Shown: in pieces, positions 4,678 to 37,089 of the stretch
Layout of the letters: each line of letters opens with the position of its first letter
How positions within the stretch are numbered: position 1 is the first letter of the stretch
Virus record (IMG/VR): IMGVR_UViG_3300020202_000046
Coordinates: 1 to 41,181 of that record
Direction: 5' to 3' (one strand)
DNA from: a virus
Length of the DNA: 41,181 nt
Notes under the pieces: model-generated
Database searches by the model: none
What the model was told of the DNA's origin: nothing
What the model saw: only the letters and a program-made list of their open reading frames with translations
Program-made: the position numbers and the translations under genes

Positions 4678-4836
4678 GCGTTTGTTCTCTTCTGCTGGTG
4701 AATCTATCTGGAACCCTAGATAGCTTCGTGCAACCCAGCGGGAGAGGACACCCTAAAGCCAAGTAACACCATTCTTGGCGGCGGGGCTAATGCCCAAGCT
4801 GCTGCTTGTTTATAGCCTTCGTCCATAAGTGATATA

Positions 4837-4954
4837 GGCGGCAGTGGCAAGGGCACCAATGCGGTAAGCGTGCTGACACGCGGTCAGCGAATAAGGGGGT
4901 TCTTTGTTACCCCTTGATTCCACAACGCCGGCAACCAGTCCGGCTACCGCTCCA
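4837..4954 (+). ncRNA. tRNA-derived structured element C (118 nt) at the 3' end of the PL leader
   Basis: GGCGGCAG...CTACCGC-T-CCA closing helix (7 bp with one C.A mismatch). Internal hairpins: GCGTG-CTGA-CACGC (4868-4881), AAGGGG-N11-CCCCTT, GCCGG-CAACCAGT-CCGGC. Its ends are homologous to elements A and B. No ORF covers it. Confidence 0.55.
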
Positions 4955-4971
4955 CTAACTAGGGAGGATGT

Positions 4972-5310
4972 ATGAATAGCAAAGAATTAGTAGAAAAAGC
5001 ATTGAATGATGCAATACCACAAATAGTGGAAAACCTGAAAAAAGATATTCAATCCCATGTCACCTGGGAAATAAAAGAACAAATATCAAAAAATGTCATA
5101 GGGGCAGTTAACGAATGGTTTGAAAAAGAAGTTTTGCCGGAGATTAAAATTTTACTTACAACGGAAAAAGCGGGCGTGTTGGGTAGTGTTCCTGAATTGG
5201 CTAATGGAATTAATAAACTGCTAGCTGATTCTTTAATTGAAACAGCAAAGAAAAAACTAGAAAGCGAGTACAACAAGAGAGAAGTATTTAAAGCCCTTTT
5301 TGGATATTAA
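4972..5310 (+). CDS. hypothetical early protein (112 aa)
   Basis: Track ORF, first gene after the PL leader. SD is AGGGAGG, 5 nt upstream of the ATG. Confidence 0.75.
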   Translation: MNSKELVEKALNDAIPQIVENLKKDIQSHVTWEIKEQISKNVIGAVNEWFEKEVLPEIKILLTTEKAGVLGSVPELANGINKLLADSLIETAKKKLESEYNKREVFKALFGY

Positions 5311-5322
5311 TTAGGAGGATGT

Positions 5323-5502
5323 ATGGATTACAAAAAAATGTTTGAGGCAGTTGAAGCAAAGCTCGAAGCGGAATTAGCGATTTATAAAAAAATGCACAAT
5401 CAACTAAAAGCGGAAGAAAACTGGCCTTGGCTAAACTCTCATATTGACAGCAGAGAAGATTTTTTAAAATTTGCCAAAGAATTAAGGAGGATTTATGCGT
5501 AA
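5323..5502 (+). CDS. hypothetical small protein (59 aa, below the track cut-off)
   Basis: Manual translation: MDYKKMFEAVEAKLEAELAIYKKMHNQLKAEENWPWLNSHIDSREDFLKFAKELRRIYA. Its SD, TAGGAGGATGTATG, is nearly identical to that of 4972. Its stop overlaps the start of the next ORF (ATGCGTAA). Confidence 0.6.
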   Translation: MDYKKMFEAVEAKLEAELAIYKKMHNQLKAEENWPWLNSHIDSREDFLKFAKELRRIYA

Positions 5503-5938
5503 ACACAGATTAAACAGCCCAATCAGCGCAAAGAACGAGTTGGATTTGCACGTTGAGCAGCTATACAGCGAAGGACATCGCAGCTATGACGATTTAGACG
5601 AGCACGATATAGAAATACTGACCAGCATGATCATGCATCAGTGTAATCGCTCTGGGCGCTTTGAGTTTATAAGCGAAACTGACGTAGCGGATGAAGTGGC
5701 TAACCGCTTAGCGCATCTGCTGCTGGACCCACAGCCAGAAGAGGCAAAAGAGCTTATTGAAGTTATGAAGAGCGGCGCTAAGAAAATGGCCGAAAAGCGT
5801 ATTAACGAACTGCTTAATCTTGAAGCTACCTTTGAGAACTACCGGCACCCGATACATCAGCCGAGCGAAGAAGATTTGCTGCTAGCCGCGCATCAGCGGG
5901 AAGTGGCGCAAGAAATGAATGGGGGTTTATATGCGTGA
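5495..5938 (+). CDS. hypothetical early protein (147 aa)
   Basis: Track ORF, translationally coupled on both sides. Confidence 0.7.
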   Translation: MRKHRLNSPISAKNELDLHVEQLYSEGHRSYDDLDEHDIEILTSMIMHQCNRSGRFEFISETDVADEVANRLAHLLLDPQPEEAKELIEVMKSGAKKMAEKRINELLNLEATFENYRHPIHQPSEEDLLLAAHQREVAQEMNGGLYA

Positions 5939-6308
5939 GATTAAGTTTAGGTTTGTTTATAAAAGCAAAATTCCAAACGATAACGATATAAACCTTTGTT
6001 GTTTAACGCTCGATGAATTGATTGATGGAGTGCGCGGAGTAATGAGCGCACCTCGCAACCACGAAAAATGGAAGCTTGTCGCTAAAGACCAATACACCGG
6101 CCTCAAGGACAAGAACGGCAAAGATTGTTATCAAGGTGACTTAGTTCAGGATATTGATGGCCATATGTGGCGGGTATTTTGGAATAATGAATGCGCCTGC
6201 TTTGATCTTAGACTTTTAGGAGCGGATATCCCTAAGCTGAGATGTATTACGCCTACATATTTAGAGACTTGCGAAATCATCGGCATCCTCACGAAAACCC
6301 AGAATTAA
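5931..6308 (+). CDS. YopX-family protein
   Basis: MREIKFRFVY... and YTGLKDKNGKDCYQGDLV match the YopX pattern. Start is at ATG 5931 (ATGCGTGA overlap with the previous stop). Confidence 0.7.
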   Translation: MREIKFRFVYKSKIPNDNDINLCCLTLDELIDGVRGVMSAPRNHEKWKLVAKDQYTGLKDKNGKDCYQGDLVQDIDGHMWRVFWNNECACFDLRLLGADIPKLRCITPTYLETCEIIGILTKTQN

Positions 6309-6324
6309 TTAAGGAGAAATAACC

Positions 6325-6435
6325 ATGCTTAACAAAGACGCAGTAACAGCACAAGAGCGGTTAAAGAATCCGAGAAGATTTAGAGGGCTGAGCCGGTTTT
6401 TATACTGGCTAGCTACTAAGCCAGCGGGGGCCTAG
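6325..6435 (+). CDS. hypothetical small ORF (36 aa)
   Basis: AAGGAG lies 8 nt upstream of ATG 6325. It fills an otherwise non-coding gap. Confidence 0.35.
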   Translation: MLNKDAVTAQERLKNPRRFRGLSRFLYWLATKPAGA

Positions 6436-6437
6436 TC

Positions 6438-6533
6438 ATGGATGAACAAGACGACATGCAAGGCTGGGCGCATGAGCAAGAGTTAGAACATCAACGATAT
6501 TTAGAGGAGGAAGAGCAATGTTTATTGAGTTAA
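6438..6533 (+). CDS. hypothetical small acidic ORF (31 aa)
   Basis: ATG 6438. The ORF overlaps the start of the 6518 ORF. Manual translation: MDEQDDMQGWAHEQELEHQRYLEEEEQCLLS. Confidence 0.3.
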   Translation: MDEQDDMQGWAHEQELEHQRYLEEEEQCLLS

Positions 6534-13912: not shown

Positions 13913-14101
13913 ATGATTGAAAATGAAATGCTTAAACCAGGTCGATGTCTTGTGTGTAGCAGAGAGCTCAAAAACCCATTATTGGATGGAATTTGTTACG
14001 CATGCATTGAACAAATTGATGTTGATAATTTCTTAAATTGTATAGACAAAATTGACAAAATATTAACACCACCCCGCCGCGAGGGTGAAGATGCAAATTA
14101 A
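13913..14101 (+). CDS. hypothetical Zn-ribbon mini-protein (62 aa)
   Basis: CLVCS...CYAC forms a CxxC pair. A GAGGGGTGA SD lies upstream. Confidence 0.55.
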   Translation: MIENEMLKPGRCLVCSRELKNPLLDGICYACIEQIDVDNFLNCIDKIDKILTPPRREGEDAN

Positions 14102-14103
14102 AC

Positions 14104-14352
14104 CTATTCTTCTATTTTTCGCAAGCTAGATTTTTCAGCCAATATTGCATAAATCTTATCCAGCTTATTTTCTAGCCTATCTAGCTGACGGTCTTGTTGT
14201 TCCATGCCCTGCTCAACATGCACTACATCTTGCTCAACCAGGGATAAGCGTTTATCAATTGAATAAATATACCAAATAGCTGAAACAAACATCGTTATAA
14301 TAGCTATTAATGTGGTAATGTTTAAGCTAAAAGATAATTTTCTCTCTTGCAT
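14104..14352 (-). CDS. spanin-like protein (N-terminal TM + coiled coil), last gene of the lysis cassette
   Basis: The TM segment ITTLIAIITMFVSAIWYIY is followed by a heptad-rich region, LVEQDVVHVEQGMEQQDRQLDRLENKLDKIY. It lies after the holin gene. Confidence 0.5.
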   Translation of the reverse strand: MQERKLSFSLNITTLIAIITMFVSAIWYIYSIDKRLSLVEQDVVHVEQGMEQQDRQLDRLENKLDKIYAILAEKSSLRKIEE

Positions 14353-14354
14353 AA

Positions 14355-14792
14355 TTATTTCCCCCTTGGGATTACTCCCGCTATGCGTTCTTTGGTTCTG
14401 TAATAACCTAAGCCCAGCATGCCAAATAACATAGGCATTATTTGCATCATATCAATGGCAGCAGATAGCTTTATTTCTTTGCCGAAAAATGCTGCGGCAA
14501 ACATCAAAAACGGTTCAAGCACAAAATGCCACGCAAACGATATTCCGCAAACCCAGCCAAGGAAAGGTCGCCAGCCTGAATTAAATAAATTACTGCTGGC
14601 CGCCTCTATCTTATTAATTTCCTGCTGACCTTTTAATAGCTCTTGCTCACCTTTTACAAGCTCATGTTCCTGCGCTTCTCTAGCCATATTCTGAGCAATT
14701 TCTTGTTTTTCCTGCTCTGATTTATCAGGCCATATCTTATTAACGATATCCCTAAAAAATTCAATGCCAGCAGTAATCGGTTCCAATGCCAT
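14355..14792 (-). CDS. holin (3-TM, GTA-type holin family)
   Basis: QQEINKIEAASSNLFNSGWRPFLGWVCGISFAWHFVLEPF matches the Holin_of_3TMs pattern. It is adjacent to the endolysin gene. Confidence 0.7.
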   Translation of the reverse strand: MALEPITAGIEFFRDIVNKIWPDKSEQEKQEIAQNMAREAQEHELVKGEQELLKGQQEINKIEAASSNLFNSGWRPFLGWVCGISFAWHFVLEPFLMFAAAFFGKEIKLSAAIDMMQIMPMLFGMLGLGYYRTKERIAGVIPRGK

Positions 14793-14793
14793 A

Positions 14794-16031: not shown

Positions 16032-16062
16032 TTTATTTATTCCTCATAGTTAAAGTTAAAAA

Positions 16063-16323: not shown

Positions 16324-16338
16324 ATTAATTTTCTCAAG

Positions 16339-17961: not shown

Positions 17962-17966
17962 AAAAT

Positions 17967-18474: not shown

Positions 18475-18483
18475 AAAATCCTC

Positions 18484-24708: not shown

Positions 24709-24713
24709 AAAAT

Positions 24714-27177: not shown

Positions 27178-27191
27178 TCATACCGCCTCTT

Positions 27192-27938
27192 TTACACGAA
27201 GTATTCGAAGCCATTAACCCAAACATCCGCATTGCACGAAGCCGCCGAGTTGATATAGCGAATAGTCGGCGCCGAGCTAACGAGTTTTGACAGTATTTTT
27301 TGTTGTCCGCCATTAAACTTTGTTGCGACAGAGCCATAAATACGCGGGCCAACCGTAGCGCTTGAAGCGCCGGGGAAAAAACTTACGTAATCGTTAGCGG
27401 TAGCCGGTGTAAACTCCGCATTAATTAACACGGGCGTGTTATCAATGGGCGGAACGCCAGTTGTTAAAGTAATGTTAGCCAAGCTTGCGCTGGTGCCATC
27501 GTTTAAGACTTTGATGGAATCATCCCAGTAATGCTGGCGTAAATTGCCATTGCCTACGACATAGCCTTTAATTAACTCAGAGCTGGAGTTGGTTAACCAG
27601 TAGCCAACAACATCAGAAATATTGTAGCCAAGCGGCATAACGGGCGTAGCAACAGTTGCAAAAGTCGTCAGCATAAAGGCTGGCGTTTTGGTGTTAATGT
27701 CAGATCCAATTTGTACTACAGCGTACCAGGTACTGGCCGCTAAAGAGCCTGTATCAAGCCCGTTAGCGCCATTCACTGCCGCATTAATAGTGACCGCGCT
27801 TGAGGTAATATCAAACGCATTACCGCTATCGCGCGCCTGGCCAGCAGCAACAGTTAAAGTTGTCGCACTGTCCCACGCTAATTGCAGGTTATTTTTATAA
27901 AGCATCGGTAAAGAAAACGCTTGCGATGAAGTAGTCAT
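27192..27938 (-). CDS. virion structural protein of unknown role (248 aa)
   Basis: Track ORF immediately downstream of the coat gene. Confidence 0.5.
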   Translation of the reverse strand: MTTSSQAFSLPMLYKNNLQLAWDSATTLTVAAGQARDSGNAFDITSSAVTINAAVNGANGLDTGSLAASTWYAVVQIGSDINTKTPAFMLTTFATVATPVMPLGYNISDVVGYWLTNSSSELIKGYVVGNGNLRQHYWDDSIKVLNDGTSASLANITLTTGVPPIDNTPVLINAEFTPATANDYVSFFPGASSATVGPRIYGSVATKFNGGQQKILSKLVSSAPTIRYINSAASCNADVWVNGFEYFV

Positions 27939-27957
27939 TTTTATTTTTCTCCGTCAA

Positions 27958-29256
27958 TTAAGAGTTAATGGGAAACAAGATACGCATGCTGTAATCTTGC
28001 ATAAGTGTGCTATCGAAAATGCAGTCATTTACGTAGCCGTCCATGTTTCCGCCAAATTGCGAACCGTAGTAGTTACGCAGTGATGCGCCCGTATCGCCCA
28101 CAGTGCTAGACGTCGGATAAGGAATTTTTTGCCCTAAGCGTGGCATTGCCAGATAAAACGCATCACCACCCACAACCAGCCCGCATTTATGGCGCGGCAT
28201 GAATTTCAATGTCATACCTGCAACAATGGCTTTGTTAATGTTTTGGTTAGCAGTTGTGCTAGAGCTGACTAAAGGAGGCGTAATATCCACGGTCACGTTA
28301 TCGCCGCTTGCGCTTGCGTCCGCAGTTACACGGAATTGCACAGGACATTCAGAAACCGCTTGACCAATGAAGGTTAAGAAGTTTAAGCCGTTAGCTGGTA
28401 GGAATTGGCCTAAATCGCCTGATTTAACTGCATCCGCGCCCGCGCCGGTAGCGCCGCTTAATACCATCTGTGTGCCAGCGGCATTAATGCTGACGACGGT
28501 TAGTGTCGTGCTTGCATTGCCTAAGTTCCCAGATTCATGAATAGGCAATAAGTTAGAACGATAAAACTTGCTATTGCCACCGGTGTAGCTGCCCAAATCC
28601 CAGGACTGCGTTAATTTATTGTTGCGGTCCGGGGTGAATTGGTTAGCACCAGTATTAATAATTGCGCTGATGGCCATGTTAGGCAGATACGTTTTTAATT
28701 CACCAGGGGCCGCGCCATATTCGTGGAAAAACGATTCCATCTGTGCGAGCTGACCAAATGAATTAATCGCTGTCACGCCATCGCCGTAAAAGCGGAAGGG
28801 CCCAGAGACGGTATTTAAAGCGCCCGTGGGAACGCTTTGACCAATGCCATTAAGCGAATAAACAGGAACGCTGCTATTAGCGTTTTTAGCCACGTTAATT
28901 TCGATAGAGGCGGATAATTGCTTAATAGCACCTTTACCAATTTTTGTCATGTAGTCTTTTAAGTTATAAATGAACTCTTGCTCATTCATCGCATACGAGA
29001 CGTTTTTAGCTTGTGTAATGGTTAAAGGGTGCAAGCGCTGTTCAGTGCTTTGGAAGGTCACAACTAGGCCGTCTGCCGTCCTAAAACGATACGGCAATTC
29101 AATATTGACGGTTGCGCCTAATTGCGCCGTCATGTTTTGAAAGTCTTTAAACTTAGTGTTTAGGGTAGAGATGAAACAATTTTGGTTTTCAAGGTGCGCT
29201 AACGCCGCTGGCTGATAAGTCGCAACTTGTTGTAAATAGTTAATTGGGTTTGCCAT
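27958..29256 (-). CDS. major capsid protein (P22-coat-size, 432 aa)
   Basis: It follows the scaffold gene in a terL-portal-scaffold-coat order. Its length is close to that of the 430-aa P22 coat protein. Confidence 0.7.
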   Translation of the reverse strand: MANPINYLQQVATYQPAALAHLENQNCFISTLNTKFKDFQNMTAQLGATVNIELPYRFRTADGLVVTFQSTEQRLHPLTITQAKNVSYAMNEQEFIYNLKDYMTKIGKGAIKQLSASIEINVAKNANSSVPVYSLNGIGQSVPTGALNTVSGPFRFYGDGVTAINSFGQLAQMESFFHEYGAAPGELKTYLPNMAISAIINTGANQFTPDRNNKLTQSWDLGSYTGGNSKFYRSNLLPIHESGNLGNASTTLTVVSINAAGTQMVLSGATGAGADAVKSGDLGQFLPANGLNFLTFIGQAVSECPVQFRVTADASASGDNVTVDITPPLVSSSTTANQNINKAIVAGMTLKFMPRHKCGLVVGGDAFYLAMPRLGQKIPYPTSSTVGDTGASLRNYYGSQFGGNMDGYVNDCIFDSTLMQDYSMRILFPINS

Positions 29257-29316
29257 CGCAAAAATCTCCGCTTATTAGTTTTAATAGCGAGGACGGTTGC
29301 GATGTGTTTTTAAGGC

Positions 29317-30042
29317 TTACGCTTGTAGGTAATCTAAACCGCGTAGCTCATTTGCACTCATCGGGCCGTCACTCGTTCCGGTATTCGATGGTGTTAATTG
29401 ATCTAACGGAGGATTAGCGCGGGGAGCGTTTCGGCCAGATTCATTCGTTTTTATCGATTGAGACCAGTTTATAATCGCTTGCACAGCCAAATGATCCATG
29501 CCTGGAGTTCGTGCGTACTGAACAATTTGCCCTGCCTGAAGAGGATTTTTTAATAAATCTTCTAAAACAGACGCGCCATTGTCGAGCGAGTTAATTAAAA
29601 TTTTAAGTTCCGGCATATTTTGTATGCCAAACGCTTTCAATTTTTCCTCAAAATCCGGCACTTGAGCTTTATGGGCTTGGATTTTAGCAAAAAATGCATT
29701 TTCTACATTCTGCATAGCACCTTGCCAGCGCATCTGCTCTGTTTGCTCGGCGACTATTCGGCGCACTTCATCCGGCGTTATGCCAGGACTCATGCCGCCT
29801 AATCCGCCTTGCGACTGAACAGGTTGCGCTTGTTGCTGAGGTTGATTTCTCTTCAATTCCTCCAGCACTTCAGCTCTGGTCTTTTGATAGGTTTCGCTTT
29901 TAACAGCGCCTACCAATTTATCTACCTGAGATTGAGGTATTAACCTTTCTTTTTCCTGTGGCTGCGCTTGTGGCGTAGCAGCAGGTACACTATTCCCAGC
30001 ATCACCTTGTGGCGATGCCCCACCTAATAATTCGTCAGTCAT
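29317..30042 (-). CDS. scaffolding protein candidate (241 aa, Gln/Glu-rich helical)
   Basis: Called on position between portal and coat, and on composition. Confidence 0.55.
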   Translation of the reverse strand: MTDELLGGASPQGDAGNSVPAATPQAQPQEKERLIPQSQVDKLVGAVKSETYQKTRAEVLEELKRNQPQQQAQPVQSQGGLGGMSPGITPDEVRRIVAEQTEQMRWQGAMQNVENAFFAKIQAHKAQVPDFEEKLKAFGIQNMPELKILINSLDNGASVLEDLLKNPLQAGQIVQYARTPGMDHLAVQAIINWSQSIKTNESGRNAPRANPPLDQLTPSNTGTSDGPMSANELRGLDYLQA

Positions 30043-30229
30043 TTTTCACCTTTATCGACTATTGCCCCGTCACGGTATGCCCCAAAAGCGCATGGGTCTC
30101 GGCTATTTCTCCGCATAGCTGCGTATGCCTCTCGTCACGTAAGAGTCCCGTAAAATAGCGCTAAAAATCCATAGCACCATTTCAGTGTATGAACATACTT
30201 CGCGCGCTATTTGCTCGCAATAAAATAAT

Positions 30230-30249
30230 AAGGGGAATTGAGGGGATAG
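30230..30249 (-). promoter_or_regulatory. late-operon motif copy 2 (minus strand CTATCCCCTCAATTCCCCTT), ahead of scaffold/coat
   Basis: Read directly. Downstream on the minus strand lie TTGCGA, a 17-nt spacer and TATGTT. Confidence 0.45.
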
Positions 30250-30266
30250 ATTTTTTTAGAGAAAAC

Positions 30267-30295
30267 GCCCACCAGAATTAATTATTTTGGCGGGC
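30267..30295 (-). terminator. rho-independent terminator candidate after the packaging operon
   Basis: The minus strand reads GCCCGCCA-N13-TGGTGGGC followed by GTTTTCTCT. The helix has a G.U pair in the minus-sense RNA but an A.C mismatch in the plus sense. Confidence 0.5.
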
Positions 30296-30302
30296 ATTTT
30301 TA

Positions 30303-30482
30303 TTAAGAGGCGCGTTTTCTGCCAGCAGCCGCCATTTTAGACATTTTTGCAGCGCCGTATTTTTTACGACCTGCCGACGCTGCAATAGCAGCCGCTGCAT
30401 CTGGTGATTTGCCAGAGCGTTCCAACTTGCCTTTTAGTTTTTGAAAGCGGCCACCGCCGCCCAGCTTCATTGATTTAGCCAT
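30303..30482 (-). CDS. small basic protein (59 aa, below the track cut-off)
   Basis: Manual translation: MAKSMKLGGGGRFQKLKGKLERSGKSPDAAAAIAASAGRKKYGAAKMSKMAAAGRKRAS. It is followed by the terminator. Confidence 0.6.
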   Translation of the reverse strand: MAKSMKLGGGGRFQKLKGKLERSGKSPDAAAAIAASAGRKKYGAAKMSKMAAAGRKRAS

Positions 30483-30654
30483 TGTTTGCCCCCATTGATT
30501 GTGTTGGCTGTGGTTTATTTGCTTTAGATAATTTATTAAAAAAATTATTAATATCAGTTTGTGTTTTTGGCCAAAAATTAAAATTAATATCTTTTATGTC
30601 TATTTTTTTAGGAAAATCTTTAAACCTGGTTTTAAGTTGTTTAATTTCTGACAT
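30475..30654 (-). CDS. hypothetical protein (59 aa, below the track cut-off)
   Basis: Manual translation: MSEIKQLKTRFKDFPKKIDIKDINFNFWPKTQTDINNFFNKLSKANKPQPTQSMGANNG. An AGGAAG SD is present. Its start overlaps the portal stop, and its stop overlaps the next start. Confidence 0.5.
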   Translation of the reverse strand: MSEIKQLKTRFKDFPKKIDIKDINFNFWPKTQTDINNFFNKLSKANKPQPTQSMGANNG

Positions 30655-32812
30655 TGTTTTCTTCCTTTGGTTTGGGTTTATTCGCCTGAATTATATCATG
30701 ATGAAGTCGTACATCCTCCCTGTCATGCTTTCGCATTTCTCCGTGGTGCCTGCTCGCCTCATGCACAACAGCAATGGCCATATCCACGTTTTTAGCCATC
30801 TTCTCCGTTTGCTGCTGCTCTAACCTTACCACTGCCTCCCGCTGCGATTCCTGGGCTTCTAATAGCAATTTAAGCCTATCGTTTTCGGCTTTGATTTCAT
30901 CAATCGATTGTTGGCCCGCATCAAGCTGGTTTTTGACTGTATCCTGCTGTATCTGATGTTCGACTTTTTTGGCCTCAATCTGATTACGCTGCACCTGCGG
31001 GTTATTCTGCATCTGCTGCATGGCCATGGCTTGTTGCTGCGCCATCTGTTGCTGCTTCTTTTGCTGAAATTGCTTAGCCATCATGCGCATTTCATCTGCG
31101 CCCGCACACTCTACGTTTTGCAGGAGGATTGGCAGGCCATCTGTGCTAAAGAATTCACCCAGCACCGGCATTGAATGCGCCAAATCGATAATTTCAGCCA
31201 AGGAGCGGGATTTTTGAATCGCAAAATTAACGCCAGGCTCAACTTTTACCCGGAATGAGTTTTCTGCGTATTGCATGCTAACGCCATTGGGCATGTTAAT
31301 CGGCGTTGATTCGCGTTTACCATCTTTATTTAATGTTGGGATAGAGCGCTTTTTAACGAGATACTTAGGAATTAAATCAACAATTATCTGGGCGCACCAA
31401 TCCCAGGATTGTAAAAATCTTACGATATAGGGCATCGCGGCTGAGTTTGATAAGGTAATGCTTTCGATAATCGCTTTACCTGACAAATCCTTATTATTAC
31501 CGCCCAGCGCTTGGTCAAAATTACCTAAAATGGTTTCTACCTTCTGCTCGCCTGCCATAAACGTGTTGGGTATCTCTGGCGGTATTGGCGCACGAACCAC
31601 GGGCGCTGGTGGATTAACAGGATTGCCGTTAACGTCCTTATCTTTGTAAATAACGACACTCGGCAATTGATTATTTTTAATCGCAGCCAAATATTCTGGC
31701 TGTGTCGGCAAACCGCCTTCTGGGAATATCCATTTACTCTGGATGCTGTCTTCCAGCTCAGAGGCCAAGCTTTGCCCTGCAAAGTTAGTCAACATCTGCG
31801 CGCCCTTGGCTTGGTAAATATACGGGCGCGTCATCTGCTGCACGGGGCCGTCTGTGCCATCCCGTAGCAATACGCTATTACCATCGACAAACACCAACGG
31901 CAGATATTTAAAGTCTGTTTCGATATAGCCTATCACCTGGTCCTCAATTAAGTGATAACGGCATATCGTGGTCATGTCGCTCATGCGGCTATCAATAATA
32001 TCGGGTATTTGCTCAAAGAGCATGGACTGCTTAGACTGCACTTCTTGCTTATATTCTTTTTTCGTCATTACTTGGCCATCCGCCAGTTCGACTATTTCAA
32101 CTTTATCTTTGCGCTTTTCGTAGTAGTAACACTCTAATAAAATATCGTTTTTATCGGTGCGATACGACCAGCTAAACTCACCCGCCTTTCTGGCAAAGCT
32201 GACGTTATTAATATCGACATCAGGGCGTTCTTTTTTAAACGCTTCTTTGGTTTTGGGGAAATACTCAAAACAAAAATCGCCATCCCCTTTGTGCGATAGC
32301 TGTGCTTTTTTATCAAAACCGCATAAGGTTGGATCAAATACCTTCATCACTTTAATATCCTGATTAAAGCTTCTGGAATGCACGTAATCAGTAGTGACTT
32401 TTAGCACGCTAAAGCCGCCGCCTAATTGGTCGGTATAAACATCGTATTCACAACCCAGCTTGTTAGAGTCGTAAAGCACATGCTTAACATAGCCCTGCAC
32501 CACTTGTATTTGTTGCACCAGTTGCGGCGTTTCCGGCATATCGTCCTGAGCGCTCACCTCAATGGATGGCTCTTGTTTAGCAAATTCACCGCGCAAGCGA
32601 GATAGCTTAGCTTCCGTAATATTAAACTCTAAATCAGGCTTGCCGAGTGCTTTTAAGAGTGCCCGCATGTTGTCGGTGAGCGCTGTCCTAAAAACAAAGT
32701 TTTTGAATTCCCAATATCTATCATAATTGGGCTTAAAGTAATCGTACGATTCTTTAATGTTTTTCTTAATGTCTTCTAATCTGTCCTGATACTTTTTATC
32801 TACTTTAGCCAT
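30641..32812 (-). CDS. portal protein (723 aa)
   Basis: It lies directly downstream of, and overlapping, terL. Size supports the call, as does the long Gln-rich helical C-terminal tail (QQKKQQQMAQQQAMAMQQMQ), which recalls P22-type portal barrels. Confidence 0.75.
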   Translation of the reverse strand: MAKVDKKYQDRLEDIKKNIKESYDYFKPNYDRYWEFKNFVFRTALTDNMRALLKALGKPDLEFNITEAKLSRLRGEFAKQEPSIEVSAQDDMPETPQLVQQIQVVQGYVKHVLYDSNKLGCEYDVYTDQLGGGFSVLKVTTDYVHSRSFNQDIKVMKVFDPTLCGFDKKAQLSHKGDGDFCFEYFPKTKEAFKKERPDVDINNVSFARKAGEFSWSYRTDKNDILLECYYYEKRKDKVEIVELADGQVMTKKEYKQEVQSKQSMLFEQIPDIIDSRMSDMTTICRYHLIEDQVIGYIETDFKYLPLVFVDGNSVLLRDGTDGPVQQMTRPYIYQAKGAQMLTNFAGQSLASELEDSIQSKWIFPEGGLPTQPEYLAAIKNNQLPSVVIYKDKDVNGNPVNPPAPVVRAPIPPEIPNTFMAGEQKVETILGNFDQALGGNNKDLSGKAIIESITLSNSAAMPYIVRFLQSWDWCAQIIVDLIPKYLVKKRSIPTLNKDGKRESTPINMPNGVSMQYAENSFRVKVEPGVNFAIQKSRSLAEIIDLAHSMPVLGEFFSTDGLPILLQNVECAGADEMRMMAKQFQQKKQQQMAQQQAMAMQQMQNNPQVQRNQIEAKKVEHQIQQDTVKNQLDAGQQSIDEIKAENDRLKLLLEAQESQREAVVRLEQQQTEKMAKNVDMAIAVVHEASRHHGEMRKHDREDVRLHHDIIQANKPKPKEENNVRN

Positions 32813-34373
32813 ATGCTGACCGCCTTAATTGTTGAATATGTGAAAATTGGTTGCCTATTTGGCTCACAACGTTTTGTTGCGAGGTTTGGCCAATCTGTAA
32901 TAAGTTCTCAAGCGTTTTATCAATGAAGCCTATTTTTACGGCGTCATAAAATGTATCGGCAATATCATCATGGGCGTGTGTGTTGTTAGCGGTTATTTTG
33001 CCCATGTGTTCAATAAATATATTGACCAGCTTGTTATCTTTGACTATCCACAGCTTGCCCTCGCTCATGAGCGACACACGACCAGAGGCCGCATAGGGCT
33101 GGGCCTCTAAGAAACGCGCTGTTTTGCTGCCAGAGGCGCGTGTACGCTCAATCTGGATAATTTTTAAGCCCTGCAGCTTGCTTAATGTTGATGAGAGCGT
33201 GACGCCGGTTGATTTCTTCTCGATTGCCGCATACATGGGCTTTACGTAGTGGCGCAAGCAGCCAGCGTAGAATTCCATGAACTCATCCTCTAAGTGCTTG
33301 GGCTCTATCCAGTCCTCGCGCAAATGAATTAAATGCAGCCCCAAAATGCCACTGCTGGCTTCTCGGTGTTTGATATCGTATAGGCCCCAAAAGCTAAACA
33401 CGGTGGGATCGTTATAGTCTTTGTCGGTTTCTGCAGTATCTGCAGTAATAAAGGTCACCAATAGCTCTGGCTCTTTATCTAAAAGCACAAAATCTTTTTC
33501 AAGATAAATAGCGCCGCCTGCGGGCTGTGGGTCTTGCTGATATTGCGCATAGAAAACGTATTTATTGAACTCGCGCATGGTTTTAAGCTGCTCTTTTGTC
33601 TTGACGTTTTCATCCAGCGCATTGCCTGCATCATCCAGGCCTTTTAAAACAACCTTTGTCCACTGATAGCCATCCCTGCCCGCTTTGAAATAAGCCGCTA
33701 AATCGGCCTCATGGAGACATTGGCCTAAGAATATTTGGGAAACGTTAGGACCGCGCACACGCTGAGCAATCGTCTCGTTATAGTTGCGTATAACGCTCTC
33801 GCGCATTGTGTCTGAATGGACTTCATCGGGTTTATGCATATCATCCATGATTAAACCGCCTGTATAGCGGCTACAGTCGGGGAAACCAGCATCCTTACCC
33901 GTGACAGCGCCTCCACTGCCAAACGCTTTAATAGCGCCGCCTCCGGTGATTTTAAAGTTATCTCTCGCTGAAGAGTCGCCATCGATTTCAATACCAAATA
34001 AGCGCCGGTATTGCGGCAGTGCTACGATGCTTTTAATGACAGCCGTATTCTTGCTGGCCTCATCATGCGAATAGCTAAGATAGAGAAACTGGCAATCTGA
34101 ATAATTTGCCCAGGCCCAGGCGACAAAGTGTTGCAGCAGTGTACTTTTGTAATGGCCTGGCGGCAGATTAATGATTAAGCGAAACGTCTCAAGATTAAAT
34201 ACCTTTGTGAGTTCTCGGCAGACTGTAATGTGATGGGATTCCCGCCCTATGGGCTGGCTTAATGAAAAGTCTCGACCCGTGCGAAACCTGAAGAATACTT
34301 GGATAAAGAAAAGCAGCGAGCCTTTTAGTTTAGCTCTAAACTCAAGTAATTCTGGATCGGTTTCAATATGCAT
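32805..34373 (-). CDS. terL: terminase large subunit
   Basis: Walker A-like LPPGHYKST and Walker B GGLIMDDMHKPDE. The C-terminal RNaseH-like nuclease region contains TFITADTAETDKDYNDPTVF. Confidence 0.88.
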   Translation of the reverse strand: MHIETDPELLEFRAKLKGSLLFFIQVFFRFRTGRDFSLSQPIGRESHHITVCRELTKVFNLETFRLIINLPPGHYKSTLLQHFVAWAWANYSDCQFLYLSYSHDEASKNTAVIKSIVALPQYRRLFGIEIDGDSSARDNFKITGGGAIKAFGSGGAVTGKDAGFPDCSRYTGGLIMDDMHKPDEVHSDTMRESVIRNYNETIAQRVRGPNVSQIFLGQCLHEADLAAYFKAGRDGYQWTKVVLKGLDDAGNALDENVKTKEQLKTMREFNKYVFYAQYQQDPQPAGGAIYLEKDFVLLDKEPELLVTFITADTAETDKDYNDPTVFSFWGLYDIKHREASSGILGLHLIHLREDWIEPKHLEDEFMEFYAGCLRHYVKPMYAAIEKKSTGVTLSSTLSKLQGLKIIQIERTRASGSKTARFLEAQPYAASGRVSLMSEGKLWIVKDNKLVNIFIEHMGKITANNTHAHDDIADTFYDAVKIGFIDKTLENLLQIGQTSQQNVVSQIGNQFSHIQQLRRSAYG

Positions 34374-34380
34374 GGCATTG

Positions 34381-34707
34381 TTAGTACTCTTTCTTGAATT
34401 TCTTGTTTAGCCTGTCTTCTGTTTCTTTAAGCTCTTTTTTAAGGGCTTCCGTCTCTGCCTTAAGCGCCTCGTTCTCTTCTGAGTTATTCATTTCAACTGC
34501 TTTTAAAATGGGAGCGATACGCGCTACCAATTCTTTATCTGCTTTAAAGCGCAATTCTGGCTCTGCTGTCTCGTCCTTTGCCAGCTTAATCAACGCCTGT
34601 ACGGGATCATGTTTTTCTTTTTGCAGCGCTGCCATCACATCGTAATAGCGTGAGCGGCTATCTTTTACGCCCTTTGGTCTACCTGCATTACCTTTTTTGA
34701 ATGGCAT
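34381..34707 (-). CDS. terminase small subunit candidate (108 aa)
   Basis: It lies immediately upstream of terL. The N-terminal FKKGNAGRPKG motif is as seen in DUF5681-type terL-adjacent proteins, and the C-terminus is a coiled coil. Confidence 0.45.
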   Translation of the reverse strand: MPFKKGNAGRPKGVKDSRSRYYDVMAALQKEKHDPVQALIKLAKDETAEPELRFKADKELVARIAPILKAVEMNNSEENEALKAETEALKKELKETEDRLNKKFKKEY

Positions 34708-34791
34708 GATTTATTTGTGTTCTAAAATTAACCAAATTTAATGATAATCGCCCAAGAAATTAATAGCCCAATTGCATAGGCAATAAGGAGA

Positions 34792-35070
34792 TTAATCATT
34801 TTTCTTTCCCTTGGCTGGCCGTCCGCGCTTCTTAGCGGCTACAGCTTTTTCAATTGCACCGCCAAGCTCTCTGCATGCGCCTGCAATTTCTTTTACAGAT
34901 GGATGTTCACCGTTCAGCTTTTGAAATTCTTCTGGTTTTGTATCAGTAGCAATCGGCTTCTCCTCCTTCCATCCCAGCCCATTGCAATCCGTACACTTAA
35001 CCAGCATATAGCCGCAGCCGCGCACTTGTTTTTGACCGTTACACGTGGAACATTTAATTATTTCAGACAC
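34792..35070 (-). CDS. DnaJ-type CxxCxGxG zinc-finger mini-protein (92 aa), first gene of the packaging operon
   Basis: CSTCNGQKQVRGCGYMLVKCTDCNGLG. GTG start at 35070. Confidence 0.6.
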   Translation of the reverse strand: MSEIIKCSTCNGQKQVRGCGYMLVKCTDCNGLGWKEEKPIATDTKPEEFQKLNGEHPSVKEIAGACRELGGAIEKAVAAKKRGRPAKGKKND

Positions 35071-35138
35071 AGAAACCCCGTTTTAAAGATATTTGGGGCT
35101 TATCTTAGGGCAGATTAAAATTGCTTAATAAGCAAATA

Positions 35139-35158
35139 CTGAGGGGAAATGAGGGGAT
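35139..35158 (-). promoter_or_regulatory. late-operon motif copy 1 (minus strand ATCCCCTCATTTCCCCTCAG)
   Basis: Read directly. It lies in the 88-bp gap ahead of the packaging operon. A TAATCT hexamer lies downstream, without a good -35. Confidence 0.45.
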
Positions 35159-35497
35159 TTATTTTGGTAATTCGGGAATCGGCATCCAGTGGGTTACTTC
35201 AGCATGCGCATAACACTTCCAGCAAGGAAGATAATCATCATATCCATTGCCATCGCATTTCCACGGTTCTTTTTCATCGCTAGCATAAAAACCCAGCCTA
35301 TCTTCTCCGGTTTTAAGTCTAAACAGAACGCATTCTTTGTGAATAGGGAGCCGCTCTTTAACGTCAATCCAGCCATCATCCACAGTCACCAGCTTTTCTT
35401 CAATAATGCAAACATGATACGGGGTGAGCCACCTGTTTAGCTTGAATTCTTCCTCAGTGTAATTTTTAAACCACGTCTTAAACTCTACTATGGTCAT
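35159..35497 (-). CDS. DUF551-domain protein
   Basis: WIDVKERLPIHKECVLF...EVTHWMPIPELPK matches the DUF551 pattern. Confidence 0.65.
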   Translation of the reverse strand: MTIVEFKTWFKNYTEEEFKLNRWLTPYHVCIIEEKLVTVDDGWIDVKERLPIHKECVLFRLKTGEDRLGFYASDEKEPWKCDGNGYDDYLPCWKCYAHAEVTHWMPIPELPK

Positions 35498-35682
35498 TTT
35501 TTTAATTCACTCCATTTGACAATGTCTCCAGAGAGCGTTTCACCTGTGCTGGTGTTTGTGCAGTACGATATATATGTTCCCGTAGCCATTAAGTCTCCGG
35601 CTCTTTTGCAAGCATCCAGAGAATCGTAAGGCACGGTAACAGTTGTACTGTAACCGAGGGCAATAATAAGCACCCACTTCAC
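35494..35682 (-). CDS. small secreted/membrane-anchored protein (62 aa)
   Basis: Hydrophobic N-terminus MKWVLIIALGYSTTV. GTG start. Confidence 0.5.
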   Translation of the reverse strand: MKWVLIIALGYSTTVTVPYDSLDACKRAGDLMATGTYISYCTNTSTGETLSGDIVKWSELKK

Positions 35683-35713
35683 CTAAAAATTCTCCATTAA
35701 TACCCAAAACACT

Positions 35714-35923
35714 CTAAACTCTGCTAGGGTCATTTTTTTCATTATCCTTTATTTCTTTAGAATCTGTTGAATAAAGTTTGGCGCTACACTTAACATTCAT
35801 TTCATTCGTATGTACGTTACCCGCCCTACCGCAAACAATGCAAGAATTTTCCCTGTCTTGAGGAAATCCCAACAAATCATTTCCAGCAGAATTATACCCA
35901 AACAAATCACCTAAAATAGTCAT
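35714..35923 (-). CDS. hypothetical protein (69 aa)
   Basis: Track ORF, contiguous with the upstream stop. Confidence 0.5.
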   Translation of the reverse strand: MTILGDLFGYNSAGNDLLGFPQDRENSCIVCGRAGNVHTNEMNVKCSAKLYSTDSKEIKDNEKNDPSRV

Positions 35924-36226
35924 CTAAAAATTCTCCACAAAAAACTTCTCAATCACGGCCTCAAACGCCTTAATATCAAACTCGCCGCCCTCGCCGCTTT
36001 GGCGGCCAATCCAGACTTTATCGGGGCGAGTACCATTTGCGATGAATAAATCGCCTATATTAATGCGATCATCCAGATTAATACCGACTACAGGAAATGC
36101 GCCAGTATTATCAGGAATTTTAAATTCCTCGCCTTGGCTCCTTTTTATGTGTTTTATGATGGCCTTTCTAAACCTTTCTTTTTCATCTGGCGTTCTGTCT
36201 TTCAGCATTTCTAATGACTCGCTCAC
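35924..36226 (-). CDS. hypothetical protein (100 aa)
   Basis: Start moved to GTG 36226 (GTGA overlap with the DUF2829 stop, GGAGGTGG SD). The track uses TTG 36241. Confidence 0.55.
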   Translation of the reverse strand: MSESLEMLKDRTPDEKERFRKAIIKHIKRSQGEEFKIPDNTGAFPVVGINLDDRINIGDLFIANGTRPDKVWIGRQSGEGGEFDIKAFEAVIEKFFVENF

Positions 36227-36429
36227 TCCACCACCTCCCAATCATCGGCCAGGACATCTTCTACCCTAAGATTATCAATTTGATGCAAAATAGATTCTCC
36301 GTTTTCCTCGGTATAAAAATACATTTCTCCTGCATTTATGAATATCGGGAAAGTTGTGCGGCTTTCACTTATTTTTCTCATAACAGGTTTCCCCGCCTTC
36401 ATCGCTTCAAGTGCTTGGCTGAAGTTCAT
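36223..36429 (-). CDS. DUF2829-family protein (Tad2-like)
   Basis: MNFSQALEAMKAGKPVMRK at the N-terminus and EDVLADDWEVVE at the C-terminus are the classic DUF2829 termini. Confidence 0.7.
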   Translation of the reverse strand: MNFSQALEAMKAGKPVMRKISESRTTFPIFINAGEMYFYTEENGESILHQIDNLRVEDVLADDWEVVE

Positions 36430-36878
36430 TTTTGAGCCTCATTAACAGGATATATTTCAGTTAGGTAACTATTTTCGATAAGATAAATAAGAAATCTAGC
36501 AGCTAAATTGGCTATATTATAATCCTGACAAAAAAGTGCAGGAACATTCTTAAATCTTTCTTCTGTGTCTCTGATGCTGATAGCATTTTCCGTTACATGG
36601 TAAGAACATTCTATTAGATTTATTCCGGTCGGAAGTTTTATCCATAGTTCGACAAATGTGAATGCTGAATAAAAACTAAGAAAATACGGGCTATTATCTT
36701 TAACCGGATCAATCAGAAGCTCTACTACATGCTCACAATCTTTGCAATCAGGCACTAGCTCATTATGGGCACAGTCTCTATCATCCCTCCAATAATGTGC
36801 ACTCTCCTGTCGCACGCCCAACGTTTTGAGGCGCTTAGCCAGCTCTAGCGACACTACCTGTTGCTCGATTGGTATCAT
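36426..36878 (-). CDS. hypothetical protein (150 aa)
   Basis: Start moved to ATG 36878 (MIPIEQQ), behind a GGAGGATTGAA SD. SLELAKRLKTLGV is a pattern common in phage hypothetical proteins. Confidence 0.6.
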   Translation of the reverse strand: MIPIEQQVVSLELAKRLKTLGVRQESAHYWRDDRDCAHNELVPDCKDCEHVVELLIDPVKDNSPYFLSFYSAFTFVELWIKLPTGINLIECSYHVTENAISIRDTEERFKNVPALFCQDYNIANLAARFLIYLIENSYLTEIYPVNEAQK

Positions 36879-36946
36879 TTCAATCCTCCGCACCGCATTT
36901 TTTACATTCTAAATTTAAATCACTCATCATTCCTCCTTATCTAAAC

Positions 36947-37052
36947 TGGAGGCGGCAGGATGGACTCGAACCATCTAGGGCGCGCGCATTAGCTTGCCGA
37001 TTGCCCACTTGTAGCTAACCAAGCGCGTGTCACCAGCCACGCCGCTACCACC
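36947..37052 (-). ncRNA. tRNA-like element B (106 nt): cloverleaf-compatible non-canonical tRNA
   Basis: Minus strand: GGTGGTAG-CG-GCGTG(GCTGGTGA)CACGC-G-GCTTG(GTTAGCTA)CAAGT-[31-nt arm closed by GGGC/GCCC]-GATGG(TTCGAGT)CCATC-CTGCCGCC-T-CCA. All helices were checked by hand. No ORF covers it. Confidence 0.6.
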
Positions 37053-37089
37053 ATAAATCATTATCCAACATTCCGGAAAAGCCGGAAAG

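Follow-up and report, generated by a model that had tools for sequence, protein, structure and literature searches.

The described systems closest to the elements reported here include the tRNA-like mRNA processing signals represented by plant mitochondrial t-elements, the mitochondrial tRNA punctuation model, the MALAT1 mascRNA, and RNase P processing in the Salmonella his operon; to our knowledge, no signals of the t-element, mascRNA or his type have been described for phage operons. RNase P reads the acceptor/T-stem stack, the elbow formed by the T and D loops, and the 3' CCA, and the anticodon domain is dispensable. Other close systems are the tRNA scaffolds used in E. coli to express and stabilise foreign RNAs, which are processed by host enzymes and are stable, and the stable RNAs C and D of phage T4, which lie in a tRNA cluster, are processed, and consist of a tRNA frame with a non-tRNA insert. 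[quoted passage not shown] The DUF3800-VII RNA (RF02967) is an orphan structured RNA of phage regions (PMC5737381).

The window analysed here, a 41 kb (41,181 nt) stretch of a temperate phage, contains three non-coding, tRNA-shaped elements, denoted C, A and B, each in the orientation of its flanking genes; they are a genuine, though uncommon, form of tRNA mimicry. With ordinary phage tRNA genes (RF00005; ARAGORN), the family shares an acceptor, a D arm, a T arm with a UUCGANU loop, a discriminator followed by an encoded CCA, and occurrence as GC-rich islands within an AT-rich phage that are sporadic among related phages. Unlike such genes, the elements lack a canonical anticodon arm, come in three copies with one acceptor, score below threshold, and lie directly upstream of a Shine-Dalgarno sequence (SD). 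The likeness to the mRNA processing signals consists in a tRNA fold that, placed within a longer transcript, keeps the acceptor and T-arm features of RNase P and RNase Z substrates without decoding; those signals define mRNA ends, and the elements would do so through the predicted cleavage. The mascRNA model matches B with 16 bits only. Length class, D arm, T arm and acceptor-like stem recall the YrlA RNAs, but a scan of 30 window ORFs revealed no Ro60 gene, inspection of A by eye no GNCGAAN0-1G motif, and Rfam searches at E<=10 no Y RNA at the three loci. Engineered scaffolds are similarly a tRNA frame with an insert in place of the anticodon arm but are artificial; T4 RNAs C and D are alike by description and differ in lying in a tRNA cluster. 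The DUF3800-VII RNA shares the status of an orphan structured RNA of phage regions and adjoins one relative of the elements (L003, below), but Rfam searches of the window gave no match to any DUF3800 motif.

The three loci lie where the earlier note had placed them: C at 4838-4954 (+), A at 8454-8585 (+) and B at 37052-36947 (-). Common to all are a leader UGAU(U/A)UA and an acceptor GCGG(C/U)AG:CU(G/A)CCGC followed by U-CCA. The shared 5' end is captured by the motif GGYGGYAGYGGC, which has three perfect matches in the window, one per locus, and, with one mismatch allowed, seven matches, where shuffled sequence gives an expectation of 0.9. A and B agree at 27 of 28 positions of their 5' ends, including the 11-nt leader TAATGATTTAT. 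The 3' ends, also noted previously, are CTACCGCCTCCA in A, CTGCCGCCTCCA in B and CTACCGC-TCCA in C, and a single A/G difference separates the 3' 12-mers of A and B. The interiors are non-homologous, as had been claimed, those of A and B not being alignable. Together with the T-loops and the tRNA-like architecture described below, the shared ends support the proposal that the three loci are paralogous and tRNA-derived, apparently on the transcribed strand. Folding energy by itself is unexceptional, with z-scores relative to shuffled sequence of -3.2 (A), -1.9 (C) and -0.8 (B); B and C are no better than shuffled sequence.

Element C has a 7-bp acceptor, GCGGCAG:CUACCGC, with one C.A mismatch. 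Its start, previously set at 4837, is moved to 4838 by this 7-bp acceptor and the register of the relatives, which makes G4837 position -1; the locus itself stands. A and B each have an eighth pair, G-C. A D-like arm (4847-4862, +) is followed by the hairpin GCGUG-CUGA-CACGC (4868-4881, +), which, as the earlier note stated, has a counterpart in B, and by a terminal hairpin (4927-4944, +) whose loop, CAACCAGU, occupies the expected T-loop place and is non-canonical; C has no relevant Rfam match. The AU-rich leader AAGUGAUAUAG (4827-4837, +) is related to that of A and B. Downstream, the gene that comes first in the plus-strand early operon has the SD AGGGAGGA and its ATG at 4972 (4961-4974, +). 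About 160 nt upstream of C, a promoter/operator-like TTGACA-N17-TAATCT (4649-4677, +) is a 91% inverted copy of 2266-2298, beside cI-like and cro-like genes; it would drive the operon with C in the leader and supports the assignment of C to a position after PL.

Element A, located between recombination genes and an HTH gene, is closed by an 8-bp outer helix, GGCGGUAG:CUACCGCC, which ends in U-CCA and stacks on GGCGUG:CGCGCC. The interior holds a GNRA hairpin (8469-8480, +), a tRNA-like minihelix (8483-8523, +; tRNA model, 19.3 bits) and a 9-bp hairpin (8524-8550, +). The T arm, ACTGG-TTCGATT-CCAGT (8499-8515, +; loop UUCGAUU), is the one recognized earlier; it sits on the internal minihelix, and none adjoins the acceptor. 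In the leader UAAUGAUUUAU (8443-8453, +), which B repeats without change (37053-37063, -), the initial nucleotides are the stop codon of the DUF669-like gene; just upstream of the B leader lies a 6-bp hairpin (37071-37087). The SD AAGGAG and the ATG (8608) after A (8591-8610, +) belong to a 73-aa HTH_3 gene.

Element B, flanked by a small HTH gene and by the genes that lead to terminase, is a tRNA-like module able to form a cloverleaf. It has an 8-bp acceptor, GGUGGUAG:CUGCCGCC, with two G.U pairs and a U-CCA end; a D arm, GCGUG-GCUGGUGA-CACGC (37042-37025, -); a further stem, of 5 bp, with an oversized loop; an extended variable region; and a T arm, GATGG-TTCGAGT-CCATC (36975-36959, -), with the loop UUCGAGU, as reported before. 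Over acceptor, D and T arms, B matches the tRNA-Sec model with 30 bits (E 1.7e-4) against a gathering score of 47 bits, and its cloverleaf, at -43.5 kcal/mol, is within 0.1 of the minimum free energy (-43.6 kcal/mol). The downstream SD AAGGAGGA and start were correctly called, but the "gene" that begins with ATGATG there (36925-36938, -) is a 16-codon mini-ORF overlapping the SD and ATG (36878) of the next gene.

That these are not ordinary phage tRNA genes is borne out by the absence of any ARAGORN tRNA call at the three loci, of any Rfam match there at gathering thresholds, and, in A, B and C alike, of a canonical 7-nt loop (U33) where the anticodon should lie. The tRNA-Cys signature proposed earlier holds in part. 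A 24-nt stretch of A occurs unchanged in the variable loop and T arm of the tRNA-Cys of Pectobacterium phage PM1, and the 3' end of A, GGAACGCGCCT-ACCGCC-TCCA, matches that of E. coli tRNA-Cys, GGAACGCGCCTCCA; read in the 7-bp register that the relatives also have (G1-C72, C2-G71, G3-C70, U73), however, the acceptor fits tRNA-Gly equally well. The identical acceptor sequence is also found in true phage tRNA-Met, tRNA-Ser and tRNA-Gln, as well as Gly, and is therefore not diagnostic of isotype. The attP fragment at 12599, from which the family had been set apart as unrelated, is the 3' end of a tmRNA (ssrA) and not of a tRNA.

No close copies came out of exact-pattern scans that covered IMG/VR, JGI metagenomes and GTDB genomes. 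A pattern that fixed both the T-loop and the acceptor 3' strand recovered four distinct relatives in uncultured phages (L003, L253/L316, L265/L312 and L269/L314); because the pattern fixed them, conservation of these two parts is partly by construction. These relatives, in a few uncultured phages, are unrecognised by annotation tools and RNA databases. In the resulting comparison of only seven distinct sequences, the relatives have the same acceptor as the window elements, compensatory changes in the D and T stems, and unrelated central regions, which across the set measure 29-99 nt. The D stems are GCGUG:CACGC, GUGUG:CACAC, GCUC:GAGC, GCC:GGC and GCA:UGC; the T stems come in five versions; and all stem pairs are standard except the C.A in the C acceptor. 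Compensatory change in the closing helix, set beforehand as a test of the family, is narrowly present, acceptor pair 5:68 being C-G, U-G, U-A or C-A across the seven elements. The G.U pairs of B and L003 work on the transcribed strand only. Resemblance outside the search pattern is seen in L253, with the leader UUUGAUUU and the 3' flank UCCA-AGUUUGAAGGAGG; this relative has kept a GCC anticodon loop, but with A33. CCA is absent in L003 and L269. No element is present in phages closely related to the window phage (70-76% identity in the Sak4-like protein) or to L316 (51-63% identity in the downstream gene), so the elements are accessory and are not needed to express the neighbouring genes.

Our tentative preference is for a natural form of "tRNA scaffold", in which the elements are modules that share the transcript of an operon and are cut out of it by RNase P together with the 3' tRNA-processing enzymes. 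Each would be transcribed within a polycistronic mRNA, C in the leader of the early operon, and its 5' and 3' ends would fold into a tRNA acceptor helix ending in U-CCA, to which B would add a D arm and a canonical T arm, and C a D-like arm and the terminal hairpin; the anticodon/variable region would have been swapped for an unrelated "cargo" domain in every copy. Since the retained parts are those read by RNase P, 3' nucleases and CCA-dependent enzymes, we infer that the host tRNA-maturation machinery would cut at the first G of the acceptor and just after CCA. The putative products are a stable RNA of 105-130 nt, combining a tRNA-end mimic with a copy-specific cargo and an acceptor with U73 and Gly/Cys-type identity nucleotides that might permit aminoacylation, and a downstream mRNA beginning 10-20 nt before the start codon, with its SD freed from the CUCC of the element. 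The RNase P-type punctuation suggested in the earlier note thus fits which parts are conserved, the cleavage itself being predicted. In favour of scaffold modules are the conserved ends around unrelated interiors, the tRNA likeness, the compensatory changes and G.U pairs, the features that L253 shares beyond the search pattern, the orientation of all copies along their flanking genes with no sigma-70-type promoter or terminator consensus beside them, and, as set out below, the placement before start codons and the predicted pairing of CUCC with the SD. Counted against scaffold modules are the C.A mismatch and non-canonical loop of C, the lack of an acceptor-adjacent T arm in A, the z-scores of B and C, the absence of CCA from L003 and L269, and the element-free close relatives.

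A lesser possibility is that the elements act in cis as leaders that are not excised, whether as structural insulators, 5' stabilisers, or switches whose 3' CUCC would pair alternatively within the acceptor end, closing it, or with the SD, masking it. In each copy, the start codon follows the CCA at a distance of 17 (C), 22 (A) and 16 nt (B), with the SD in between, in agreement with the earlier observation. The CUCC-SD pairing behind the earlier idea of SD gating has predicted partner probabilities of 0.4-0.75 across the three copies (in C with AGGGAGGA, in A with GGAG); yet the thermodynamic model pairs any SD with a nearby CUCC. Five elements out of seven (A, B, C, L253 and L269) have an SD and start codon within about 26 nt downstream; among 57 true phage tRNAs whose 3' ends are similar, only 4 do (Fisher p = 3e-4). 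When independent loci alone are counted, the figure is two of four (p = 0.045). The 3' flank including the SD is conserved among A, B and L253. L265a and L003, however, have no SD directly after the element, and the CUCC...GGAG pair, read in the sequence of L253, is absent from L269, which lacks CUCC. Moreover, an insulator needs no T loops, D arms or encoded U-CCA, and homologous genes in related phages manage without the element. 

It is unlikely that the elements are decaying, non-functional tRNA genes, that is, Gly, Cys or Ser-like remnants with insertions and rearrangements, for which the sub-threshold tRNA-model scores, the GCC anticodon arm of L253 (albeit with A33), the tRNA-Cys fragment inside A, the sporadic distribution among related phages and the acceptor mismatch of C could all be cited; three independent pseudogenes would not keep leader, acceptor, U-CCA and SD spacing yet lose all else, the stems of the relatives change by compensatory substitution without broken pairs, and the interiors are well-paired hairpins rather than eroded tRNA sequence. 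We consider it improbable that the ends serve at the DNA level, as recombination linkers or termini of a mobile cassette (stop-rich leader, inverted-repeat body, SD) moving between gene junctions, with an incidental RNA fold. Every element does occupy a mosaic junction, at which homology with related phages breaks off, those phages have empty sites, several other gene-junction sequences are repeated in the genome (D2, D4, D10, D12, D19), and the conserved unit reaches past the helix on both sides, but target-site duplications and a transposase are both absent, the attP used by the integrase is of the ssrA type, the integron attC core (GTTRRRY) is absent on reading the sequence, and the G.U pairs, together with the canonical T loops, suggest that a single RNA strand is under selection. 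That the elements are tRNAs active in decoding, with an intron or an enlarged loop and maturation through splicing, is very improbable: relaxed ARAGORN calls B a tRNA with a 16-nt intron, and insertions are seen in the tRNA-model matches of contig L292 (below), but the relaxed calls are inconsistent in isotype, A, B and C lack the U33 loop, a Pfam scan of 30 window proteins revealed neither an RNA ligase nor a splicing endonuclease, and we know of no short protein-spliced tRNA introns in bacteria.

Two observations concern the scanned contigs themselves. In L003, a DUF3800-VII RNA (61.8 bits) begins directly after the tRNA-like element, with no DUF3800 protein found nearby. The viral contig L292, found by the scan, has four tRNA-model matches above the Rfam gathering score, at least two and probably three of which have anticodon-loop insertions of roughly 50 nt.

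The three tRNA-shaped elements of the window, C (4838-4954, +), A (8454-8585, +) and B (37052-36947, -), lie where the earlier note had placed them and belong to a family that is rare but real, and is more than a curiosity of one genome; it represents a variant of tRNA mimicry, not a new category of RNA. The 12-mer GGYGGYAGYGGC occurs exactly three times in the window, once per locus. The 5' ends of A and B are identical in 27 of 28 nt, including an 11-nt leader, UAAUGAUUUAU, and these two copies also have the 3' 12-mer CU(A/G)CCGCCUCCA in common, whereas C is more divergent, with the leader AAGUGAUAUAG followed by GCGGCAGUGGC and CUACCGCUCCA. The ends close an acceptor helix of 8 bp in A and B and of 7 bp, with one C.A mismatch, in C, and all three copies terminate in U-CCA. 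Each element is on the same strand as the neighboring coding genes, and two further statements of the note also stand: a start codon with a strong Shine-Dalgarno (SD) site is found 16-22 nt after each copy, and the CCUCC at the 3' end is a predicted pairing partner of that site, the SD GGAG being predicted to pair with CUCC spanning the acceptor end and the discriminator in 3 of the 3 window copies (partner probabilities 0.4-0.75). Promoter-like or terminator-like consensus sequences were not detected beside the elements on the element strand, so that sigma-70 promoters or intrinsic terminators of their own were rejected. The same applies to a small peptide starting from the ATG that overlaps the 5' ends of A and B, given that this ATG has no SD and that C contains no ATG.

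The elements resemble tRNAs but escape the tools designed to find them. ARAGORN with default settings reports 0 tRNA or tmRNA genes in the window, and Rfam yields no match there at gathering thresholds; for C, there is no tRNA match at E<=10 and no informative Rfam match, and the tRNA-model score of an internal piece of A is 19.3 bits, compared to the gathering score of 29. An anticodon arm (5-bp stem, 7-nt loop, U33) is absent from the expected place in all three elements, the anticodon-region loop of B being 8 nt or 23 nt long. With the tRNA-model thresholds not reached and the canonical anticodon arm missing, these are indeed not ordinary phage tRNA genes. Nevertheless, B contains a T arm (5 bp, UUCRANY loop; 36975-36959) 5' of the acceptor 3' strand, and its full cloverleaf is at most 0.1 kcal/mol from the minimum free energy. 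In that fold, the acceptor has 8 bp, the D arm is GCGUG-GCUGGUGA-CACGC, a 5-bp stem closes an 8-nt loop, the variable arm is long, and the T arm is GAUGG-UUCGAGU-CCAUC. In C, the place of the T arm is taken by a hairpin with the loop CAACCAGU. Element A does not form a cloverleaf: an outer helix of 8 bp is stacked on GGCGUG:CGCGCC, the interior consists of a GNRA hairpin, a T-arm minihelix (19 bits with the tRNA model) and a 9-bp hairpin, and the T arm is internal (8499-8515), not beside the acceptor 3' strand. The folding energies of B and C are unremarkable, so the case rests on architecture and comparison rather than on stability.

The association with tRNA-Cys proposed earlier holds in part. 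Positions 8494-8516 of A correspond to the variable loop and T arm of the tRNA-Cys of Pectobacterium phage PM1 (a 24-nt exact BLAST match), and the 3' end of A, GGAACGCGCCU-ACCGCC-UCCA, resembles that of Escherichia coli tRNA-Cys, GGAACGCGCCUCCA, which was verified across 5,425 genomes. The acceptor sequence, however, does not fix the isotype, because the same sequence is present in ordinary phage tRNA-Met, tRNA-Ser and tRNA-Gln.

Several specialized classes of structured nucleic acids were considered and rejected. Selenocysteine tRNAs are characterized by an 8/5 acceptor/T-stem arrangement, a 6-bp D stem with a 4-nt loop, and a UCA anticodon. At permissive thresholds, B matches the tRNA-Sec model (RF01852) with 30 bits (E = 1.7e-4), short of the required 47 bits; the alignment covers the 8-9-bp acceptor and both the D and the T arm but leaves out the anticodon arm, and B has a U discriminator. 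L003, a relative on another viral contig, scores 15.8 bits. A tmRNA combines a tRNA-like domain containing G3:U70 with a tag-peptide reading frame; pair 3:70 of the elements is C-G or U-G (8-bp register), and ARAGORN finds no tmRNA at the loci at relaxed thresholds, the sole tmRNA-like piece in the window being the attP fragment at 12599. YrlA and other bacterial Y RNAs are recognized by an adjacent Ro60 (TROVE) gene and a Y RNA model match; there is no such match at E<=10 at the three loci and no TROVE domain among the 30 window proteins scanned against Pfam. Integron attC sites carry R''/R' core sites (RYYYAAC ... GTTRRRY) and are served by the IntI integrase, and direct reading of the ends, GGCGG...CCGCC, reveals no GTTRRRY core. 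The DUF3800-I to XI RNA models have no match in the window.

Homologs of the elements are hard to find. When A and B were searched with blastn in 50,697 phage records, the 24-nt tRNA-Cys match was the sole result. When IMG/VR, the JGI metagenomes and one genome for each GTDB species were scanned for exact patterns of the A/B-type 5' end, alone or with the 3' end, the matches were GC-rich coding noise except for one real relative, L003, the sole real match in IMG/VR. The leader combined with the 5' motif gave only coding noise in IMG/VR; of the 36 JGI matches, only L126, again the L003 contig, was not GC-rich coding noise; and 77 of the 77 GTDB matches were due to chance, including two non-coding-looking ones that were checked (L199 and L205). 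The productive search of IMG/VR combined the T loop with the acceptor 3' strand (GGTTCGANTCC-N2-3-CTGCCGCY). It produced 74 matches, about half of them true tRNAs (Met, Gly and others) and 11 of them a coding gene, along with several non-coding elements lacking an ARAGORN call. Three of the latter were accepted as relatives, each present in two contigs: L253/L316 (153 nt), L265/L312 (89 nt) and L269/L314 (107 nt). Rfam has no match in L253 or L269 and only a T-arm fragment in L265. CTACCGC and UUCAA variants of the pattern recovered true tRNAs and noise only, and an ends-only covariance model recovered 5' halves only, without bridging the long insert. The hunt for homologs recommended in the note thus produced four distinct relatives outside the window, close copies being very rare.

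Other matches were set aside: L285 and L299 look like tRNA 3' fragments, and L279 and L321 have no pairing 5' strand. L292, probably another virus type, was rejected as a family member because its elements are true tRNA-model matches with anticodon-loop insertions. Four clustered genes on this contig (7779-9562) score 46-56 bits, above the gathering threshold of the Rfam tRNA model, and at least two of them, probably three, have insertions of about 50 nt in the anticodon loop; at 9442-9562, the family acceptor is present and the 5' end resembles that of element C. In the relative L003, a DUF3800-VII RNA (RF02967, 61.8 bits; 1928-2017, -) starts directly after the tRNA-like element, the only case of a DUF3800 RNA next to an element among the relatives. 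Downstream of it come a GGA-rich stretch, which weakly matches rsmX, and a hairpin resembling a terminator; no DUF3800 protein was found among seven neighboring ORFs. L265 (as well as L312) carries additional elements in which a T arm is combined with a closing helix resembling an acceptor, at 1275-1367, 1641-1766, 5020-5075 and around 5182, one of them 122 nt long (GCUGGUG...CACCGGC-CCAA), for which neither ARAGORN nor Rfam calls a tRNA; multiple non-canonical tRNA-like elements are thus present in this second genome, too.

Comparison of the seven distinct elements (A, B, C, L003, L253, L265a and L269) brings out what is conserved and what is free to change. The acceptor GCGG(C/U)AG:CU(G/A)CCGC is present in all seven and T loops are UUCGANU in all but C, the T loop and the acceptor 3' strand of the relatives being fixed by the search pattern. 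The kinship of the relatives appears to be real given the shared features outside that pattern, namely, the 5' strand, the D arm (CG-GUGUG...CACAC in L269, CG-GCGUG...CACGC in B), the L253 leader UUUGAUUU and the L253 3' flank UCCA-AGUUUGAAGGAGG. At acceptor pair 5:68, three elements have C-G, two have U-G, and one each has U-A and C-A, a compensatory series with wobble intermediates; the absence of compensatory change in the closing helix, which the note had named as grounds for refutation, is thereby narrowly avoided. Pair 2:71 of B is U-G. The D stems differ by double changes (GCGUG:CACGC, GUGUG:CACAC, GCUC:GAGC, GCC:GGC and GCA:UGC), the T stems have five different sequences, and there are 0 non-standard pairs in either stem. 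The 29-99 nt that separate the D arm from the T arm have no alignable sequence in common. In L253, a cloverleaf is near-optimal (-57.9 vs -59.0 kcal/mol), with an anticodon arm GUGGG-CAGCCAG-CCCAU (GCC, but A33), a variable region of about 80 nt, and G1-C72, C2-G71, G3-C70 and U73, which we take to be the tRNA-Gly identity set; the L003 loop is UGACCCG.

Location sets the elements apart from tRNA genes. An SD site and a same-strand start codon follow within about 26 nt in A, B, C, L253 and L269, and in L269 the upstream gene ends about 30 nt before the element; the same scans also gave 57 distinct true phage tRNAs with comparable 3' ends, and such a neighbor is present in 4 of them (Fisher p = 3e-4 when the seven elements are taken together, 0.045 when only the four loci outside the window are counted). 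The downstream genes encode unrelated small proteins. No element was found at 92 loci of phages with related terminase or Sak4-like genes, in the three closest relatives by the Sak4-like protein (L103-L105; 70-76% identical), or at the corresponding place in five other contigs encoding homologs of the gene after the L316 element. In L104 (11401-11652) and L105 (9582-9767), the slot of A, directly after the DUF669-like gene, is held by csrA. Given these related phages without them, the elements are accessory and come and go; where present, they fit precisely between two cistrons and seem to come with a leader and an SD of their own.

Which process could have shaped such a pattern? The acceptor helix, the discriminator with CCA, the T arm and the D arm are the parts read by RNase P, 3' tRNA-processing nucleases and other tRNA-end enzymes. 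In the elements, the conserved parts are those that these enzymes read and the variable part is one that they do not need, and accordingly we favor a scenario, drawn from sequence comparison, in which the elements would be co-transcribed with the flanking genes and excised by the host tRNA-maturation machinery. The RNase P substrate class is defined by cleavage at the 5' end of the acceptor helix, and what the sequence shows of its prerequisites is a stack of acceptor and T stem, a 3' NCCA and, in A and B, a U at position -1. Excision would yield two products, a stable RNA that mimics a tRNA and carries a cargo domain particular to each copy, and a downstream mRNA left with a short leader, and the cut after CCA would remove the pairing between the SD and CUCC. 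Plant mitochondrial t-elements, mascRNA and engineered tRNA scaffolds follow the same logic, with the scaffold kept and the rest free. The decay of tRNA genes, although compatible with the sub-threshold scores and the sporadic distribution, seems an unlikely source of elements that all share the leader, acceptor, CCA and SD spacing and in which the compensatory stems are unbroken; that they are intron-containing decoding tRNAs is highly improbable.

A more ambitious version, which we advance tentatively as a possibility, is that some temperate phages use the tRNA frame as an expression and processing cassette. The portable unit, consisting of the stop-rich leader, the acceptor/D/T scaffold with exchangeable cargo, U-CCA and the SD, could be inserted between any two genes; its excision by host tRNA-maturation enzymes would punctuate the polycistronic mRNA and unmask the next SD. 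The released RNAs, each with its own cargo on a chargeable acceptor end of the Gly/Cys type, might work in trans, for instance by serving as decoys for host factors or for immune nucleases recognizing tRNA ends. A leader element acting in cis only would account for the adjacency to SD sites, but seems rather doubtful in view of the tRNA-specific features and the dispensability of the elements. Linkers or mobile cassettes operating at the DNA level could explain the mosaic junctions, and other repeated junction sequences exist in the window genome, but strand-specific G.U pairs and T loops make this quite improbable.

tRNA-guided punctuation of mRNA is known from organelles, MALAT1 and a few bacterial operons. 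If processed as predicted, the elements would extend it to phage operons and provide a natural precedent for the tRNA scaffolds used in bacterial RNA expression; were the trans-acting cassette real, phages would possess both a counterpart of mitochondrial tRNA punctuation and a family of small RNAs built on a tRNA scaffold. The variable cargo domains are candidate new phage small RNAs. There is also a blind spot in annotation, with ARAGORN and Rfam missing elements that pattern scans find in four other uncultured phage lineages.

The host genome of the elements is that of an uncultured temperate phage of about 41 kb, assembled as a circle. Its first and last 127 nt (1-127 and 41055-41181) are 100% identical, which indicates that the assembly, of about 41,054 bp, is either circular or terminally redundant. 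The phage was seen in metagenomes only (ENA ERZ27257319, JGI 3300021062 and Logan SRR7004196), where its contigs are identical to the window and therefore offer no population variation; megablast of 4000-9500 against the 50,697 phage records showed no DNA-level similarity to cultured phages. A cI-like repressor (2278-3003) and a cro-like gene (2025-2426, -) are accompanied by a + strand early operon that includes YopX, a Sak4-like AAA_24 ATPase (7144-8022) and the DUF669-like protein (8026-8445); the structural genes are on the - strand. A 33-nt inverted repeat (91%) containing TTGACA (2266-2298 and 4641-4673) has one copy directed toward the cro-like gene and the other toward the early operon, probably a pair of repressor-controlled early promoters. 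Element C is located about 160 nt downstream of the TTGACA-N17-TAATCT promoter/operator at 4649-4677, and its placement after PL in the earlier note is reasonable because this is a 91% inverted copy of the cI-like/cro-like intergenic one. By contrast, the supposed attP tRNA fragment at 12599 is not a tRNA but the 3' end of a tmRNA (ssrA) (12599-12800, -; Rfam tmRNA model E = 3.7e-5; the match ends in ...GGAGUUCGAUCCUCCUCGGCUCCACCA). About 0.8 kb separates it from the integrase gene (10755-11783), and ssrA is therefore the probable integration site.

Repeated sequences are found at other gene junctions, too. A 31-nt direct repeat (94%), a repeated 5'-UTR element, occupies two successive intergenic gaps of the - strand operon (37602-37632 and 37852-37882), the upstream copy following a near-consensus promoter, TTGACA-N17-TATAGT (~37907-37879), and the second copy having no such promoter. 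Short junction sequences recur at 9772-10244, 9333-9603 and 35479-35743 (e.g., ACCACCAACGGCA..AGGTTAAATTATG, three times), which suggests tandem duplication of small genes or linker-mediated shuffling. Between B and the next gene lies a 16-codon mini-ORF (MMSDLNLECKKCGAED; 36880-36930, -), the stop codon of which overlaps the SD and ATG of that gene, suggesting translational coupling.
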